From: Minisyncoccota bacterium
GTDB taxonomy: Bacteria > Patescibacteriota > Minisyncoccia > Phycocordibacterales > Phycocordibacteraceae
DNA length: 64,000 nt
Assembly: GCA_041660025.1 (NCBI GenBank)
Contig: JBAZXD010000001.1
Location: 158,499-222,498, forward strand
Direction of reading: 5' to 3'
Shown here: piece by piece, positions 624 through 63,863 of the stretch
Position numbering within the stretch: position 1 is the first letter of the stretch
How the letters are laid out: each line of letters starts with the position of its first letter
Translations under genes and position numbers: made by a program
The notes under the pieces: model-generated
Database searches by the model: none
What the model saw: the letters and a program-made list of their open reading frames with translations, nothing else
Told to the model about the DNA's origin: nothing

Positions 624-1030
624 TTGTGGAGGTGGGGAGAATTGAACCCCCGTCCGATTCTGGCCACGAAAGCGAGTCTACGACGCATAGTCAGCGTTAG
701 CTTTAACCTAGGGTGCGAGGAACGCAGACGAAACCACTCCTAGGCGATCCCTTATTTAGACGTGCCGAGCGGGAGGTCGGACATCGATCTCACGGATAAT
801 TCCGCCCATACCTCCGGCCGTGAGAACCCGAGAGGATGAACGTCGCGAGGCGAGTGGCCGTTAGGCGACCGCGTACGCGAACGTGAAATCACGCGTACCG
901 AAGTACGGAGACTTCACGCTTGCAAGAGTGTTCTTTGCAAGTATGGTTTCTCGCTAGATTAGAGTGGTAGGCGAGAGTGCACTGCGTCGCACGTCTTTCA
1001 AGGTACAGACCGTCAAAGCCGGTCACCCCC
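624..1030 (-). ncRNA. ssrA: tmRNA (SsrA)
   Basis: The minus-strand RNA begins GGGGGUGACCGGCUUUGACGG, a typical tmRNA 5' acceptor. It ends with the T-arm GGGGGUUCAAUUCUCCCC and the acceptor 3' strand CACCUCC. That strand pairs with the 5' GGGGGUG when G-U pairs are allowed. There is an internal ORF ending ...FAYAVA-UAA that resembles a proteolysis tag. smpB lies immediately adjacent. Confidence 0.85.
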
Positions 1031-3568: not shown

Positions 3569-3642
3569 GCGCCCTTAGCTCAATTGGTTAGAGCACCGAG
3601 CTTATACCTCGGCGGTTCTTGGTTCGAGTCCAAGAGGGCGCA
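3569..3642 (+). tRNA. tRNA-Ile with anticodon UAU (reads AUA)
   Basis: A cloverleaf was derived by hand: acceptor GCGCCCU/AGGGCGC, T-loop TTCGAGT, and anticodon loop CUUAUAC. No CCA is encoded. Confidence 0.7.
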
Positions 3643-14412: not shown

Positions 14413-14416
14413 TTTT

Positions 14417-14750
14417 GTAGACCGGGCCGATAAGCCGAATTCTGTCGTGGATGATCATTTATCTGGGCCTGTCATTACTGACAAGCTCGAGCGGCACTTC
14501 CCTCGATTTCTCTCGGGACACGGCCTTGCATGCGGGTAAGGATTTATTCGTTGCACCCTCGTCTTTCGACGAGATTCTCCCCGAAGGGAGCCTCCGACTT
14601 TCGTCTTCGGCGTCACTGTGGTCACCTCTATCCTCGCGGACGACGGGCGTTACCCGCTACCTATTTTCCCACCCGAGGGCAGGGAAGCATGTTCGGACTT
14701 TCCTCCCGCCACACGAAAAGTGTGGCGAGCGATCGTCTAGCCTGGTCTCC
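14417..14750 (-). ncRNA. rnpB: RNase P RNA (bacterial type)
   Basis: The minus-strand RNA contains the hallmark GGGAGGAAAGUCCGAAC (P4 5' strand) and ACAGUGACGCCG. Its 3' end (AGAUAAAUGAUCAUCCACGACAGAAUUCGGCUUAUCGGCC) closely parallels the E. coli M1 RNA 3' end. An extended -10 (TGgTATAAT) sits immediately upstream on the minus strand. Confidence 0.8.
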
Positions 14751-21358: not shown

Positions 21359-21601
21359 ATGGATAAAACCGTCACTATTTACAGCACGCCGACCTGCCAC
21401 TTCTGCCAGATGACCAAGGATTTTCTTAAGGAAAAGGGTATCGTCTATACCGAACACGATGTCGCGCATGACCTCGAGAAGCGCCAAGAAATGATTCAGA
21501 AATCCGGTCAGATGGGCGTGCCGGTCATATTCGTCGGCGACGAGATGATCATCGGTTTCGACAAGGAAAGGCTCGTGTCTTCTCTTGGCATAACCGCGTA
21601 A
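21359..21601 (+). CDS. Glutaredoxin-like protein (NrdH/Grx family)
   Basis: It is 80 aa, carries the CxxC motif (TCHFC) near the N-terminus, and has the VPVIFVGDEMIIGF thioredoxin-fold signature. Confidence 0.75.
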   Translation: MDKTVTIYSTPTCHFCQMTKDFLKEKGIVYTEHDVAHDLEKRQEMIQKSGQMGVPVIFVGDEMIIGFDKERLVSSLGITA

Positions 21602-21639
21602 CTGTTCGGCCGCCTTATCTTCGCAGACTCGATATGCGG

Positions 21640-21693
21640 GCTCGTTCGGAGAGAAAGAATGATTGAGGACACTCACTCTTTCTTCCTCACTTC
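21640..21693 (+). repeat. Conserved ~55-nt tRNA-upstream element, copy 1 (abuts the tRNA-Arg 5' end)
   Basis: The sequence ctcgttcggagagaaagaatgattgaggacactcactctttcttcctcacttcg is nearly identical to the reverse complement of 63700-63757. Confidence 0.5.
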
Positions 21694-21765
21694 GCCCTTA
21701 TAGTTCAATGGATAGAACAGCCCCGTCCTAAGGGGTAGATGCTGGTTCGATTCCGGCTAAGGGCA
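21694..21765 (+). tRNA. tRNA-Arg (anticodon CCU)
   Basis: Cloverleaf: acceptor GCCCUUA/UAAGGGC, anticodon loop GUCCUAA, and T-loop TTCGATT. Confidence 0.85.
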
Positions 21766-21787
21766 CATCCTGGTATACTGAAAGCAT

Positions 21788-22072
21788 ATGGACCCGGAAC
21801 TGAAACGAGAGCTTGAAGAGATACACGCGCTCGCGAAAGATAACCATCGTATGCTCAGCGCCATCCGGCGCCACCAGTGGTACAGCTTTCTGACGACTAT
21901 TGTGTTCTGGATCGTCATACTCGCTACGCCGTTCTATCTCTATCAGCAATATCTACAGCCGCTCGTTGAGAAGTTCTCCGTGACCCCCGGTGAGACCACC
22001 GCAGGCTTCCTCGGCCTCCCGACTTCCGCTGATATGCAAAAGCTGATAAACTCGTTCAAAGCGGGACAATAG
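21788..22072 (+). CDS. Small hypothetical membrane protein (94 aa)
   Basis: An ORF with one or two TM helices lies between two tRNA genes. Confidence 0.45.
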   Translation: MDPELKRELEEIHALAKDNHRMLSAIRRHQWYSFLTTIVFWIVILATPFYLYQQYLQPLVEKFSVTPGETTAGFLGLPTSADMQKLINSFKAGQ

Positions 22073-31566: not shown

Positions 31567-31638
31567 GTGACCCTACCGGGAATCGAACCCGGATTAACGG
31601 CTTGAAAAGCCGGCGTCCTAACCGTTAGACGATAGGGC
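31567..31638 (-). tRNA. tRNA-Glu (anticodon UUC)
   Basis: Minus-strand cloverleaf: acceptor GGCCCUA/UAGGGUC, anticodon loop UUUUCAA, and T-loop TTCGATT. The first anticodon-stem pair is a mismatch. Confidence 0.75.
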
Positions 31639-31780
31639 CGTGTTATTTGCACACGGCCATACACTCTTCGCCTCTCTCGGAACAGATGAAATCCCATCTG
31701 TTCTCTCGTTCGGCTTGATTGTAGGGCCTTAATTAAAACCTTACCATTTTCGGGCTTAAATGCTAGAATCCAGGACACAC

Positions 31781-33699: not shown

Positions 33700-35238
33700 A
33701 TGAAAAAATTCATTCATCTCGGTATCATCCTGTTCTTCATCGCATCCGCTCCTCTCTCCGCATATGCTGACGAGCCGCTCCTTATTGATGTACCGAGTCA
33801 TTGTACGATTACCGATACCGACGGCGTCTCGCACACATTCCCGCAAGACGGTTCACCGAGCGACTATCTGGGCATCTGCCTGCTCGAGGCTGCCCAGGAA
33901 GCGGGACTCGTCACCTTCACGCTCACGAACGACCCGGACTTCGGTCTCTATGTAGAGAGTGTGAACGGCGTCGCACCGGGGGCGACCGAATATTGGGCGC
34001 TCTGGAGTAACGGAGCTTTTGCGACGTGCGGTATCGGCTGTATCCCGCTCTCGCAGGGCGATACGCTCTCCCTCATCCTCACGGACTGGATGACGAACGT
34101 CGAGAGCATCACGGTCGTACTGCAGGCACATTCTCTCGTATCGCCGCCGCCGCCTTCGGGCGGCGGCGGGGGAGGCGGCATCCCGAATTCGCTTTTGAAT
34201 GTCGAGGATGCGCTCGCGTATCTCGCGAGCACACAGCAGGGGGACGGCTCGTTCGGCTCGTTGATGCTCTCCGACTGGGTGGCAATCGCCTTTGCGGCGG
34301 TCGACCCGGGGGACGCGAAGGCGAAACTTCGCGAGTATCTGCGCACGGTAACTCCGGCGCTCTCGAGCGTGACCGACTATGAGCGGCACGCGATGGCGCT
34401 CGCGGCGCTCGCTATCGACCCGTACTCCGGCACTCCGGTCGATACCATCACGCCCATCGTGCAGGCATTTGATGGGACGCAGATTGGCGACCCCTCGCTC
34501 GATAACGATGACATCTTCGCGCTCTTCCCGCTCTTTGCTGTCGGGTACAGAGCGAACGACCCTATCATCCAGAAGACGACGGCATTCATCCTCTCGCGCC
34601 AGGGTCGGGACGGCTCGTGGGACGGGAGCGTCGACCTGACGGCCGCCGCCATCCAAGCGCTCGTGCAGGTGCGTATGCTCCCGGACGTCTCCCTGGCTCT
34701 CATACGGGCCGAGGGGTACCTGCGCTCGAAACAGCCGAGCGACGGCGCCGGCAACAGCTTCTCGATGAGCTGGGTACGCCAGGCGACAAGCGCGCTCAGC
34801 TGGACGCCGAGCGGCTGGGAACCGAACTCGTTCACCAAGGATGACCATCTCGCCGAACTCCAGCAGTCTGATGGCGGCGTCGAGCCCGAATCGTCCGGCA
34901 CACAGACTCGCGTGTGGGCGACCGCCTATGCGATACCCGCCGCGCTCGGGAAGCATTGGCCGGTACTTCTGCAGTCGTTCTCAAGGCCGAGGAACATCGT
35001 AGATTCAACGTCGACTAGTATCGCTCCGAGCACACTCCCTGTCGCGACTCCACCACCACCCGTCGCCATAGAAGCGCGCATCGCACCGCCCAAGCAAGCG
35101 GTGCGAGAGAAGGCGATCGAGCCCGTCCTACCCGTCCTTATCGATCTGCAGACAGCCGCGGTAGCGGACGCACCGGCCGGCGCTTTCTTCAACAACCTCT
35201 GGGACTCCGTCTCAGCGTTCTTTAACAGGTTCTTATAA
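33700..35238 (+). CDS. Secreted protein with an N-terminal DUF4430 domain, a prenyltransferase/terpenoid-cyclase-like alpha-alpha-toroid repeat domain, and a Pro-rich C-terminal tail
   Basis: It has a signal peptide, a second DUF4430 signature (GLYVESVNGV...YWALWSNG...GDTLSLILTDW), and a poly-Gly/Pro linker. After that come repeated QxxDGSWG-type motifs (LASTQQGDGSFG, LSRQGRDGSWDG, LQQSDGGVEP), which are typical of prenyltransferase/squalene-cyclase-like repeats. Confidence 0.65.
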   Translation: MKKFIHLGIILFFIASAPLSAYADEPLLIDVPSHCTITDTDGVSHTFPQDGSPSDYLGICLLEAAQEAGLVTFTLTNDPDFGLYVESVNGVAPGATEYWALWSNGAFATCGIGCIPLSQGDTLSLILTDWMTNVESITVVLQAHSLVSPPPPSGGGGGGGIPNSLLNVEDALAYLASTQQGDGSFGSLMLSDWVAIAFAAVDPGDAKAKLREYLRTVTPALSSVTDYERHAMALAALAIDPYSGTPVDTITPIVQAFDGTQIGDPSLDNDDIFALFPLFAVGYRANDPIIQKTTAFILSRQGRDGSWDGSVDLTAAAIQALVQVRMLPDVSLALIRAEGYLRSKQPSDGAGNSFSMSWVRQATSALSWTPSGWEPNSFTKDDHLAELQQSDGGVEPESSGTQTRVWATAYAIPAALGKHWPVLLQSFSRPRNIVDSTSTSIAPSTLPVATPPPPVAIEARIAPPKQAVREKAIEPVLPVLIDLQTAAVADAPAGAFFNNLWDSVSAFFNRFL

Positions 35239-35334
35239 GCAAAAATGCTTTCAACCTCATTACTGCGGAGAGAATATCATAAGCAGACTCATGATATTCT
35301 TCCTTCGTAAGGGGTTGTAGTATACTCACCCGAT

Positions 35335-35874
35335 ATGAATCTCTCCTTTACCACCGGCTGGCTCAAATTCGTTATCGGTTGGAGCGTCGTATTCCTCTTC
35401 AGGCTCATCCCGTTCCGCCCGCCGAACGTCGAGCCATTGCTCGCGACCTTAATGCCGTTCTCTAAGCGCTTCGGTCCACTCGGGAGCTTCTTCTTCGGAT
35501 TCTTCGGCATCGTCCTCTTCGACGCCGTGACGAGCGGCTGGGGGATGTGGACGCTTGTGACCGCGCTCGCATACGGCGCGCTCGGCCCCGCCGCCTATTA
35601 CTTCTTCAGGCACCGCGAAGCGTCGGTCAAGAATTTCGTCAGCTTCGGCATCGCGGGCACTATCGCATACGACGCCGCGACCGGCCTCACCATCGGCCCT
35701 TTGTTCACCGGACAGCCGTTTCTGGTCGCACTTACGGGGCAGATACCGTTCACGCTCCTGCACCTTGCAGGCACCGTCGTCTTCGCCACCCTCCTCAGTC
35801 CGGCTCTCTACCGCTGGGTAGTGCGGAACGAGCGGTTCGAGTTCTCATTCTTCAAGAAGCGCGTGCTGGCGTAG
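35335..35874 (+). CDS. Small polytopic membrane protein resembling an ECF-transporter S component (substrate unknown; candidate vitamin or B12 transporter)
   Basis: It is 179 aa with ~5-6 TM helices and an N-terminal loop P-x-P-N-V-E-P that resembles S-component signatures. It sits immediately downstream of the riboswitch-controlled DUF4430 genes. Confidence 0.4.
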   Translation: MNLSFTTGWLKFVIGWSVVFLFRLIPFRPPNVEPLLATLMPFSKRFGPLGSFFFGFFGIVLFDAVTSGWGMWTLVTALAYGALGPAAYYFFRHREASVKNFVSFGIAGTIAYDAATGLTIGPLFTGQPFLVALTGQIPFTLLHLAGTVVFATLLSPALYRWVVRNERFEFSFFKKRVLA

Positions 35875-55722: not shown

Positions 55723-55843
55723 GCTTCCAAAGCATACTATGTTCTGCTATATTTTTCTTTACGCACCTATATCTTCTCAAACTCGATATAGGCTGCTCGT
55801 TCGGACCGTAAGAATCCGAGGACGTATTCTTACATCCTCACTC

Positions 55844-55916
55844 GCACCTATAGCTCAGTTGGTAGAGCAGCTCCCTCTTAAGGAGACGGTCCCTGGTTCG
55901 AGCCCAGGTAGGTGCA
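55844..55916 (+). tRNA. tRNA-Lys (anticodon CUU)
   Basis: Cloverleaf: acceptor GCACCUA/UAGGUGC, anticodon loop CUCUUAA, and T-loop TTCGAGC. There is one mismatch at the top of the anticodon stem. Confidence 0.75.
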
Positions 55917-55947
55917 CTAAGTTTCTGTAGTACTAAACGTTTCTTTG

Positions 55948-63628: not shown

Positions 63629-63699
63629 TTTATGGCGGCGGGCCCACCAGGAATCGGACCTGGGCTGTCGGTTTTGGAGACCGATGTACTACCATTATA
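63629..63699 (-). tRNA. tRNA-Trp (anticodon CCA)
   Basis: Minus-strand cloverleaf: acceptor GGGUCCA/UGGGCCC (one G-U pair), anticodon loop CUCCAAA, and T-loop TCCGATT. Confidence 0.85.
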
Positions 63700-63757
63700 C
63701 GATGGACCCGAAGTGAGGAAGAAATGAATGAGTGTCCTCAATCATTCTTTCTCTCCG
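63700..63757 (-). repeat. Conserved ~55-nt tRNA-upstream element, copy 2 (abuts the tRNA-Trp 5' end)
   Basis: The reverse complement reads ctcgttcggagagaaagaatgattgaggacactcattcatttcttcctcacttc. This is near-identical to 21640-21693. Confidence 0.5.
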
Positions 63758-63863
63758 AACGAGGGTCCATATGCCTACATATGGACCCGTGTGTGCACGA
63801 TAGCAGATAGACGGGTGGGGGAAAAGCCGCCCCGAGTCGGCCGAGGGGCGGTATGATGGGGAT

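Follow-up and report, generated by a model that had tools for sequence, protein, structure and literature searches.

Why do two different transfer RNA (tRNA) genes carry almost the same 53 nucleotides (nt) directly in front of their first base? The question is raised by tRNA-Arg and tRNA-Trp in a 64,000-nt stretch of the genome of a Minisyncoccota bacterium (GenBank assembly GCA_041660025.1, contig JBAZXD010000001.1, positions 158,499 to 222,498), hereafter called the window. The answer we favour, at a probability of roughly 50%, is an insertion-derived 5' leader cassette. It would be co-transcribed with the tRNA and removed by RNase P, and its first hairpin, P1, would neutralise an acceptor strand that the insertion had duplicated.

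The cassette and its copies in the window

The window has a G+C content of 59% and contains 13 tRNAs, a transfer-messenger RNA (tmRNA) and a class-A RNase P RNA (ARAGORN, Rfam). The 35-mer CTCGTTCGGAGAGAAAGAATGATTGAGGACACTCA occurs in it exactly twice, at 21641-21675 on the plus strand and at 63729-63763 on the minus strand, where 100 shuffles let expect none. An earlier note on this DNA had described a near-identical repeat 5' of two tRNA genes, with its last base touching the mature tRNA, and it was right on both counts. The segments 21641-21693 and 63710-63763 are one substitution and one single-base indel apart. Both terminate in ...CCTCACTTC, at the base directly 5' of G1 of tRNA-Arg (from 21694, plus strand) or tRNA-Trp (from 63709, minus strand; ARAGORN, Rfam). 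The two copies are real, but two is too low a count. Listing the 110 nt upstream of each tRNA in the window disclosed a third, diverged copy 5' of tRNA-Lys(ctt) at 55763-55843, and a rearranged relative lies between tRNA-Glu and tRNA-Ser(cga). A covariance model finds the full copies at 63701-63788 (minus strand, E = 2e-20), 21609-21702 (plus, E = 3e-18) and 55763-55852 (plus, E = 4e-14).

The 53 nt in common form the core of a modular cassette that extends over about 80-90 nt. Its order is: -10 box, A, loop, A', the junction UCGUUC (J), P2, a tail of UCAC plus 2-3 nt, and G1 of the tRNA. A is a copy of the host tRNA's own nt 1-8/9, placed about 75-85 nt 5' of the tRNA in all three window copies. 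A' is the reverse complement of A; together with the loop they form P1. P2 is a long hairpin with GGA/UCC closure and a G-AGGA-C apex. In the Lys copy A reads GCACCTATA, as does the tRNA (GCACCTATA); in the Trp copy it is GGGTCCATA against GGGTCCATC in the tRNA, and in the Arg copy it has degenerated to GCCGCCTTAT against GCCCTTATA.

Copy 1 (plus strand) is preceded by a putative extended -10-like box, TGGCATAAC, at 21586-21594, which is assigned from -10 geometry and lies inside the 3' end of a glutaredoxin-like open reading frame (ORF; 21359-21601). P1 (21609-21641; covariance-model alignment and fold) consists of A = GCCGCCTTATC, a degenerate version of tRNA-Arg nt 1-9, the loop TTCGCAGACTC and A' = GATATGCGGGC. 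It is eroded and orthologous to the distal unit of a threefold array in a related genome (L110, see below). There follow J, TCGTTC, at 21642-21647, near-invariant and predicted to be unpaired; P2 at 21648-21686, closed by GGA/TCC, with the apex GAGGAC at 21665-21670 (covariation, fold); and the single-stranded tail TCACTTC at 21687-21693, which abuts G1 of tRNA-Arg(cct) (21694-21766; ARAGORN, Rfam) at the presumed RNase P site. A hairpin had been recognised here before, but its length of about 11 bp was underestimated: P2 is an imperfect stem-loop of 39-40 nt.

Copy 2 (minus strand) has its candidate extended -10-like box, TGCTATCGT, at 63797-63805; the hexamer ends 8 nt 5' of A. P1 (63763-63788; covariance model, fold) is a perfect 11-bp hairpin, GGGTCCATATG-TAGG-CATATGGACCC. 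The perfect palindrome that the earlier note had seen 5' of this copy therefore exists, but not as a separate item: it is P1 itself, its arm GGGTCCATATG being a copy of tRNA-Trp nt 1-8. Its counterpart in copy 1 is the degenerate stretch 21609-21641. The remaining parts are J, TCGTTC, at 63757-63762 (sequence, covariance model), P2 at 63717-63756 with GAGGAC at 63734-63739 (covariance model, fold), the tail TCACTTC at 63710-63716 (sequence) and tRNA-Trp(cca) at 63637-63709 (ARAGORN, Rfam).

Copy 3 (plus strand; covariance model, with P1 and P2 also from the fold) is preceded by the extended -10 box TGCTATATT at 55745-55753, its hexamer ending 9 nt 5' of A; the box is also kept in the orthologous loci L088, L061 and L096. 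P1 (55763-55796) comprises A = GCACCTATATC, i.e., tRNA-Lys nt 1-9 plus TC, the loop TTCTCAAACTC and A' = GATATAGGcTGC. J, again TCGTTC, is at 55797-55802, P2 at 55803-55837 with GAGGAC at 55818-55823, the tail TCACTC at 55838-55843, and tRNA-Lys(ctt) at 55844-55917 (ARAGORN, Rfam). The sequence, ...CTCGTTCGG-acc-GTAAGAAT-cc-GAGGAC-gt-ATTCTTAC-a-TCCTCACTC|G, retains the flanking motifs and the loop of copies 1 and 2; the P2 stem is swapped for different, complementary strands, GTAAGAAT and ATTCTTAC, and is compensated relative to them.

Both hairpins covary strongly. In a MAFFT alignment of 32 copies with a hand-drawn structure, 85.7% of the cells pair, compared with 68.4% in column shuffles and 36-50% with slid partners; 21 of the 28 pairs show changes on both sides, and none of 500 shuffles reaches any of the observed measures. 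A model-based alignment of 68 hits gives 86.6% paired cells (shuffles 66-68%, slid partners 30-50% across both alignments) and changes on both sides in 23 of 26 pairs, which again none of 500 shuffles matches. The GG/CC closure of P2 is invariant, and the next pair is compensated in a copy at tRNA-Phe (L007; GGA..UCC to GGGC..GCCC). Variants of the apex loop (GAAGAC, GCGGAC, GCAGAC, GAGGAA, CAGTAC) are uncompensated. A pseudoknot between loop and tail (GAGGA with UCCUC) was rejected, since the uncompensated loop variants argue against it and the changed closure in L007 supports that of P2. GAGGA and UCCUC do pair in an alternative hairpin predicted for one subfamily, and may thus meet in an alternative state only. 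The apex is most plausibly an AGGA tetraloop on an invariant G-C closing pair.

Folding the element with RNAfold, as the earlier note had proposed, yields P1, P2 and the cloverleaf as minimum-free-energy and centroid structure of pre-tRNA-Trp (-62 kcal/mol, z = -4.7). The leaders alone have z = -6.7 (Trp), -4.1 (Lys) and -0.85 (the eroded Arg copy).

Linkage to tRNA genes, insertion and decay

Is the position at tRNA genes the rule? Species genomes, one per species (GTDB representatives), were scanned with the pattern CTCGTTCGG-N8-24-GAGGAC-N8-24-TCCTCAC. Of the 94 loci thus obtained, 20 are true copies. Their metagenome-assembled genomes (MAGs) are labelled, as deposited, Patescibacteria, Paceibacterota, Parcubacteria, Kaiserbacteria, Minisyncoccia or "Saccharibacteria", or are unlabelled. 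In all 20 the match ends 2-3 nt 5' of a tRNA-like 5' sequence; ARAGORN confirmed the tRNA in 16, and three copies are truncated at the end of a contig. High-G+C genomes account for the remaining 74 hits, all of them chance matches to coding sequence that have no tRNA next to them. Metagenome contigs, scanned with the same pattern plus one extra T, added 37 loci, 33 of them true, on related contigs and with the same tRNA linkage; the chance matches of both scans together number roughly 78. In all, 53 of 53 true loci lie at tRNA 5' sequences. No hit was obtained in viral contigs, and a phage origin was rejected accordingly. The comparative set was gathered with patterns that fix 22-23 bases, and 8-15 kb were examined around each hit.

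The host tRNAs are those for Arg (ccg, cct, tct, gcg), Lys (ctt, ttt), Thr (ggt, cgt, tgt), Met, Ile (gat), Phe and Trp, with one weak case for Asp. Neighbouring tRNAs for Leu, Ser, Val, Gly, Cys and Glu, 47 in number but not independent loci, are all without a cassette. Shared synteny and 61-80% identity of a flanking protein suggest that many of the MAGs belong to one Kaiserbacteria-like group regardless of their label. The host range of the cassette may therefore be narrower than the "candidate phyla radiation" (CPR).

Two loci of the set are peculiar. In L004 (5959-6260) the anticodon loop of the cassette-bearing tRNA-Thr(ggt) is moreover interrupted by about 210 nt, probably a group I intron, because of which ARAGORN missed the tRNA. 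L126 (368-460, minus strand) shows a full cassette followed by just 11 nt of a Lys-like tRNA (GCGCCTGTAGC) and then by unrelated sequence; it is the sole copy seen without an intact tRNA.

That the cassette is an insert is seen by comparing an empty with a filled site. The loci L006 and L076 have about 70 nt of upstream flank and tRNA-Lys(ttt) in common. In L006 the junction reads ...AAAATATAC|GCGCCCGTAGCTCA, the promoter being joined directly to G1; in L076 there are 85 additional nt between two copies of GCGCCCGTA. The insert is accordingly flanked by an 8-9-nt direct repeat of tRNA nt 1-8/9. A second comparison is offered by a syntenic Arg locus, where tRNA-Arg(gcg) and, behind it, tRNA-Arg(ccg) come after an ORF with the end ...AAWLGF*. 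The former carries the cassette in L020/L107, L063, L114, L119 and L112, the latter in L019, L100 and L129, and the spacers at the unoccupied positions are homologous. Of the options that the earlier note had offered, the footprint of a mobile element at tRNA 5' flanks came closest, in view of empty and filled sites, the duplication of nt 1-8/9, tandem arrays and the linkage at all 53 loci.

Such arrays consist of three serial units with an 81-nt period in L110, where the loop of the distal unit differs, and of two units each in L091, L109 and L131. L121 has two units and then a different insertion by which tRNA nt 1-24 are duplicated; upstream, partial 5' copies occur at one position after another. 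In all these serial loci the upstream 5' copies are eroded to a variable extent. In L065 an internally deleted unit of the TTC-loop family precedes an intact one of the TAGG-loop family, an arrangement that simple tandem duplication cannot give. Decay and exchange are also seen: in L119 P1 alone is left, the core having been lost between two GCGC microhomologies, and L112 and L113 are module recombinants with P1 and P2 from different subfamilies.

The tRNA-Thr(ggt) of L121 (6763-6838) is preceded by a pseudo-5' fragment made of nt 1-15, a 45-nt double hairpin, nt 17-24 and 10 nt. This insertion is of a different kind, likewise with a tRNA 5' duplication, and lies downstream of the two older cassettes, so that the locus resembles a stack of successive insertions. 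In the window, the decayed relative in the spacer (31640-31780) between tRNA-Glu (31567-31639, minus strand) and tRNA-Ser(cga) (from 31781, plus strand) comprises, on the plus strand at 31678-31743, a hairpin followed by CTCGTTCGG; the covariance model finds it weakly (E = 0.06). Read on the Glu strand, a -10-like box comes first, then GGCCCTACA (tRNA-Glu nt 1-7), CTCGTTCGG as its reverse complement, a hairpin of 9 bp from GAACAGATG and CATCTGTTC, TGTATGGCC as a near-complement of the 5' copy, 15 nt and finally the tRNA; the junction motif is inverted compared with the canonical copies. A solo P2-like hairpin, CGGAGAGAATATCA-TAAGCAGACTC-ATGATATTCTTCC, lies at 35266-35303 (plus strand) with no tRNA nearby, in the spacer between an ORF ending at 35238 and a TAGTATACT box with an ATG at 35335. 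The match to the covariance model is weak (E = 0.035); the foot GGAGAGAA...TTCTTCC is that of the tRNA cassettes and the GCAGAC apex that of the L109 and L121 variants.

The insert has no coding capacity to speak of. Between the repeats there are only about 75 nt and no gene, and the longest stop-free stretch in any of the leaders (72-110 nt) is 36 codons. Terminal inverted repeats are lacking: the first 14 nt share 5.1 matches with the reverse complement of the last 14, as do shuffles (5.1 +/- 1.3).

Transcription, folding and the arms of P1

Where would transcription start? In cassette-free tRNAs with a good -10-like box (n = 37) the hexamer mostly ends 8-11 nt before G1, in cassette-bearing ones (n = 25) mostly 8-10 nt before A. 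From these matching distances we infer that A sits at the original start of the tRNA and that the whole cassette lies downstream of the transcription start, i.e., within the transcript as a 5' leader. The proposal of a common leader thereby appears correct. That of a common promoter does not: no -35/-10 match coincides with or adjoins the element, upstream of which the -10-like boxes are situated, and no sigma-70 -35/-10 pair with 16-18-nt spacing is found within the shared segment on the tRNA strand. The cassette genomes rather seem to rely on extended -10 boxes. Cassette-free stable-RNA genes (the tRNAs at 3569, 11295, 30889, 31781, 55722, 56036 and 56296, the tmRNA ending at 1030 and the RNase P RNA ending at 14748) have an extended -10 (TGnTAnnnT) whose last base is 7-11 nt upstream of the mature 5' end, and a -35 cannot be recognised; the natural leaders of this organism would therefore be very short. 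Nor does the cassette contain an intrinsic terminator, for P2 is followed by UCACUUC and the tRNA, with no U tract.

Identity between the 49-nt cores of the syntenic Arg locus is 82-100%, stem positions that the search pattern left unfixed included, compared with 61-80% for the flanking protein; the spacer between -10 box and A is unalignable. Being conserved far above its flanks, the core is, as judged from these alignments, under purifying selection or continually homogenised.

The relation between A, A' and the tRNA deserves a closer look. Out of 8 positions, A and the tRNA agree at 7.1 on average. The mean number of pairs that A' forms is 6.8 with A and 7.0 with the true tRNA 5' strand; where A and tRNA differ, the better fit of A' is to the tRNA in 11 copies and to A in 6. 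Counted over all cells, pairs are formed in 88.1% for the A-A' helix and in 87.8% for A' with the tRNA 5' strand. Since the scores are equal, covariation cannot tell which of the two helices is selected. At G.U positions of the tRNA (Trp, L047-Met, L061-Lys) A' carries the Watson-Crick base, by which the view of A' as a copy of the tRNA's 3' acceptor strand was rejected. Both A and A' mirror the changes (GCG to GCA, G7 to A7, T6 to C6) by which the tRNA 5' strands of orthologous Lys(ctt) loci differ.

How A' comes to fit its target is not answered uniformly by the copies. About half of them have a mismatch at position 5 of P1, and the A' variants ACGAG.GC and ACTTG.GC recur at different tRNAs; both observations suggest that A' is partly inherited from the donor copy. 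The Trp copy points away from such inheritance: its P1 is perfect and target-specific, yet its core is nearly identical to that of the Arg copy, and some templated step must therefore be involved. Quasi-palindrome correction is an established route of mutagenesis. We suggest that it could be that step here, the template switch occurring within the molecule and being nucleated by the short palindrome ATG...CAT. The Trp A' arm, the 11-mer CATATGGACCC, also occurs at 21776-21796, just 3' of tRNA-Arg (…gaaagCATATGGACCCggaac), where it overlaps the ATG (21788) of an ORF at 21788-22072; this may be a coincidence.

What P1 may do was modelled with ViennaRNA; all figures are equilibrium predictions. 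In pre-tRNA-Trp the probability of the true acceptor stem is 0.96 in the wild type, 0.03-0.05 with A' shuffled and 0.07-0.18 with A shuffled. When A' is shuffled, A pairs with the tRNA 3' strand at about 0.9; when A is shuffled, the stem is lost because the freed A' invades the tRNA. The corresponding values for Lys are 0.42, 0.00 and 0.10-0.19; in the eroded Arg copy neither shuffle matters. The medians over 48 copies are 0.72 for the wild type, 0.09 with A' shuffled and 0.61 with A shuffled. In the model, therefore, either arm alone can derail the folding of the tRNA, and A and A' cancel each other.

Some copies are predicted to fold otherwise even in the wild type. They mainly belong to a subfamily in which the apex of P1 (UGUAGGC) is complementary to the 5' strand of P2 (GCCUACA). 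In their alternative fold A pairs with the tRNA 3' strand, the apex with P2, and GAGGA with UCCUC in a hairpin. Complementarity between apex and P2 reaches significance in 18 of 52 copies. It comes in two unrelated sequence versions and is disrupted in recombinants; that it might be universal was rejected, all the more as the three window copies lack it. The co-transcriptional order A, A', P2, tRNA would favour the productive fold.

What kind of element?

The cassette does not belong to a known RNA family. At Rfam gathering scores the whole window yields tRNAs, the tmRNA and the RNase P RNA only, and between 21560 and 21800 the tRNA alone matches Rfam 15 at E <= 10; a known family was therefore rejected as its identity. 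The tmRNA (626-1030, minus strand), by the way, has an unusually long predicted tag peptide, AKNTLASVKSPYFGTRDFTFAYAVA. In the full-text literature, of which coverage was incomplete, so that absence of evidence is all it amounts to, no description of such an element was found. TIGR-Tas is unrelated.

Small bacterial repeats such as the Correia/NEMIS MITEs (transposable elements of the miniature inverted-repeat kind), REP/BIME, ERIC, BOX and RUP are likewise short, non-coding, multi-copy, hairpin-forming and co-transcribed. They share with the cassette direct duplication, presence/absence polymorphism, tandem arrays, decay products and tolerance in transcribed non-coding positions. Like a MITE it is small, non-coding and multi-copy, with three full copies and one relic in 64 kb, and it has a target-site duplication; unlike a MITE it has no terminal inverted repeats. 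It further differs from the small repeats by its very low copy number and its confinement to the 5' edge of tRNAs, by a target that is always tRNA nt 1-8/9 and whose complement it carries, and by unpaired motifs that stay invariant while the stems vary. REP/BIME elements have many extragenic copies and a 5' GTAG; the cassette copies are few and all 5' of tRNAs, and a GTAGGC apex is seen in one P1 family only. We know of no transposase or RAYT that would serve the cassette, no search having been aimed at RAYT.

tRNA genes are known harbours of mobile DNA: islands and phages with tyrosine integrases at their 3' ends, Ty3 and the Dictyostelium TRE5 upstream of them in eukaryotes, and type V-K CRISPR-associated transposons, which home to their immediate vicinity. 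The target is the same, and there, too, function is kept by duplicating or restoring the part that is disrupted. The cassette, however, duplicates the 5' instead of the 3' end of the tRNA, is with about 80 nt a hundred times smaller, has no gene, and lies inside the transcript, wherefore it must be removed at the RNA level. An integrase and an att site over the 3' part of the tRNA, the marks of tyrosine-integrase elements, are both absent.

Among RNA devices, the trp-type attenuator works by alternative pairing of segments 1:2, 2:3 and 3:4, and RNase P external guide sequences, minihelix substrates and the t-elements of plant mitochondria invite comparison as well. To our knowledge there is no natural leader of the RNase P riboswitch type. 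P1 is an acceptor-like minihelix of 11-12 bp, and A' on the tRNA 5' strand would mimic an external guide for the same bond; in contrast to guides and minihelices, A' is followed by UCGUUCGG and not by a 3' RCCA, and the use of either helix by RNase P is putative. The small self-cleaving ribozymes (hammerhead, twister, pistol, hatchet, HDV-like) are likewise about 50 nt long and multi-copy, with covarying stems, near-invariant junction and loop nucleotides and a mobile-like distribution; the cassette, however, matches no Rfam ribozyme model even at E <= 10 and lacks the hammerhead core motifs. Engineered RNase P riboswitches are synthetic, ligand-controlled leaders whose structure gates cleavage (PMC8925977). 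With these and the attenuators the cassette shares a structured leader of four consecutive, mutually complementary segments, whose pairing state sets how the tRNA 5' end is presented; unlike in the engineered riboswitches, the productive fold of the window copies is predicted to be favoured both kinetically and thermodynamically.

How, then, could such an insert be tolerated? In the reading that we prefer, the cassette would be a module of about 80-90 nt within the transcribed 5' edge of tRNA genes of Kaiserbacteria/Paceibacterota-like Patescibacteria. Insertion after tRNA position 8-9 would duplicate the first 8-9 nt, so that the original promoter and A, the duplicated 5' strand, come to lie upstream and a complete tRNA gene downstream. 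The tRNA promoter would then drive the cassette as a 5' leader, which would fold into P1, from A and the built-in A', and P2, the long stem with the invariant G-AGGA-C apex, bordered by the invariant single strands UCGUUC and UCAC(U)UC. The single-stranded tail of 6-7 nt would keep the cleavage site accessible, and RNase P, of which the class-A RNA is encoded at 14415-14748 (minus strand; Rfam, 118.7 bits), would cut after the tail to release a normal tRNA. Left unpaired, A would rival the true 5' strand in binding the 3' acceptor strand, and a lone A' would invade the tRNA; pairing of A with A' would neutralise both arms and render the insertion harmless. Spread among tRNA genes could occur by insertion or templated copying, by slippage between A and the tRNA 5' end, which would account for arrays and precise losses, and by module exchange, which between paralogous tRNAs with identical 5' ends would account for local hops. 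The cassette would then be a tolerated, probably selfish repeat, whose conserved unpaired bases may be read by some factor.

Several findings weigh against this reading. A scan for the -35/-10 consensus detected no promoter upstream of the copies. A transposase or an autonomous partner was not found, nor was an ORF-bearing version of the cassette among 57 loci. In about one third of the copies the predicted equilibrium favours the alternative fold even in the wild type, so the argument of neutralisation depends on the order of co-transcriptional folding. The near-invariance of J, apex and tail is in part imposed by the search patterns; in about eight copies that were found only as neighbours or by the model, these parts are recognisable but variable. 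The main evidence against a purely neutral passenger is the conservation of the core, which points to some function.

That function could be regulatory. A, A' and the 5' and 3' strands of the tRNA would form an attenuator-like switch of benefit to the host, and a protein or ligand reading UCGUUC, G-AGGA-C and UCAC would decide on tRNA folding and RNase P cleavage, thus controlling the maturation of particular tRNAs. The unpaired elements and whole cores are conserved far above the flanking DNA; A' is as complementary to the tRNA 5' strand as to A and, where the two differ, sides with the tRNA more often; the predicted ensembles of many copies are near bistable; in two subfamilies the additional P1 apex-P2 complementarity stabilises the alternative fold; and engineered structure-changing leaders do gate RNase P (PMC8925977). 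For a dedicated regulator it is odd, however, that the carrier tRNA shifts between close relatives (Arg-gcg or Arg-ccg, Lys-ttt filled or empty) and that most tRNAs are without a cassette. P1 is moreover the first helix to form in transcription and the more stable one, no ligand or protein candidate is known, variant copies lack the GGA apex (GAAGAC, GCAGAC, CAGTAC), and the apex-P2 complementarity is absent from all three window copies. We consider such a switch rather unlikely. The broader idea of a natural RNA device instead of a passive passenger appears even more doubtful to us. The device could be a maturation switch, in which a factor reading UCGUUC, G-AGGA-C and UCAC might set the competition between A, A' and the tRNA 5' and 3' strands and so gate RNase P for each tRNA, or a small ribozyme or guide-bearing homing element, which might process, or home to, tRNA 5' ends with A' as internal guide. 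If true, either would be a mechanism without described natural precedent.

The tRNA might also serve as a processing handle. MALAT1/mascRNA, the tRNA-snoRNA genes of plants and the 3'ETS-leuZ sponge are established cases of tRNA-linked release of other RNAs. RNase P would here free a small RNA of about 85 nt with two hairpins that acts in trans, e.g., as a decoy that occupies a protein with affinity for AGGA-loop hairpins or acceptor-stem minihelices. Its 3' end would coincide with the RNase P site in all copies, its hairpins are predicted to be stable, the AGGA tetraloop has an invariant G-C closure, and P1 is an 11-12-bp minihelix with the acceptor sequence of the host tRNA. P1, however, differs with each host tRNA, so that the released RNAs would be heterogeneous, and the copy number per genome is low. 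A regular-expression search of six-frame translations around the loci, which cover a tiny fraction of the genomes, found no CsrA-like partner in CPR DNA and one hit outside the CPR. We regard this option as improbable. Hardly credible is the idea that no insertion took place at all, P1 being the remnant of a tandemly duplicated tRNA gene after internal deletion and the core a conserved inter-tRNA spacer. It would explain why A and A' follow each other as 5' and 3' strand, why A' ends exactly opposite G1 and why tandem tRNA paralogues are common at cassette loci. It is largely refuted by the Watson-Crick bases of A' where the real 3' strand has G.U (Trp, L047 Met, L061 Lys). Further, P1 spans U8-A9 and 2-3 more pairs found in no tRNA 3' strand, the same core precedes at least eight tRNA identities, L065 has two different loop families in series, and empty orthologous sites join the promoter straight to G1. 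Least likely of all is a common promoter or transcription-factor site, or a small peptide (GGAGAG..ATG, giving MIEDTHSF...). Either would suit the position upstream of tRNAs, and the Arg and Trp copies do have a Shine-Dalgarno-like GGAGAG before an ATG. The element itself, however, has no -35/-10 match, the -10-like boxes keep their normal distance on the upstream side of A, and the stems covary as paired strands, unlike a DNA site. The small ORF was rejected: Shine-Dalgarno sequence plus ATG occur in just 3 of 52 leaders, with a frame that continues into the tRNA.

For practical purposes, a covariance model is ready for the annotation of Patescibacteria, where tRNA genes and promoters may be miscalled on account of such inserts. 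Research on tRNA and RNase P would gain a natural set of long, structured leaders with built-in competitors of the acceptor stem, in organisms with minimal genomes. The cassette also raises the question whether its invariant unpaired bases are read by a mobilising enzyme or belong to a regulatory fold that controls the tRNA supply of CPR bacteria. If the insertion-derived leader is confirmed, it would represent a new way of living inside a gene: in the first nucleotides of essential tRNA genes, where the insert would survive because RNase P trims it off and because it brings its own antidote, a hairpin against the acceptor strand that it duplicated.

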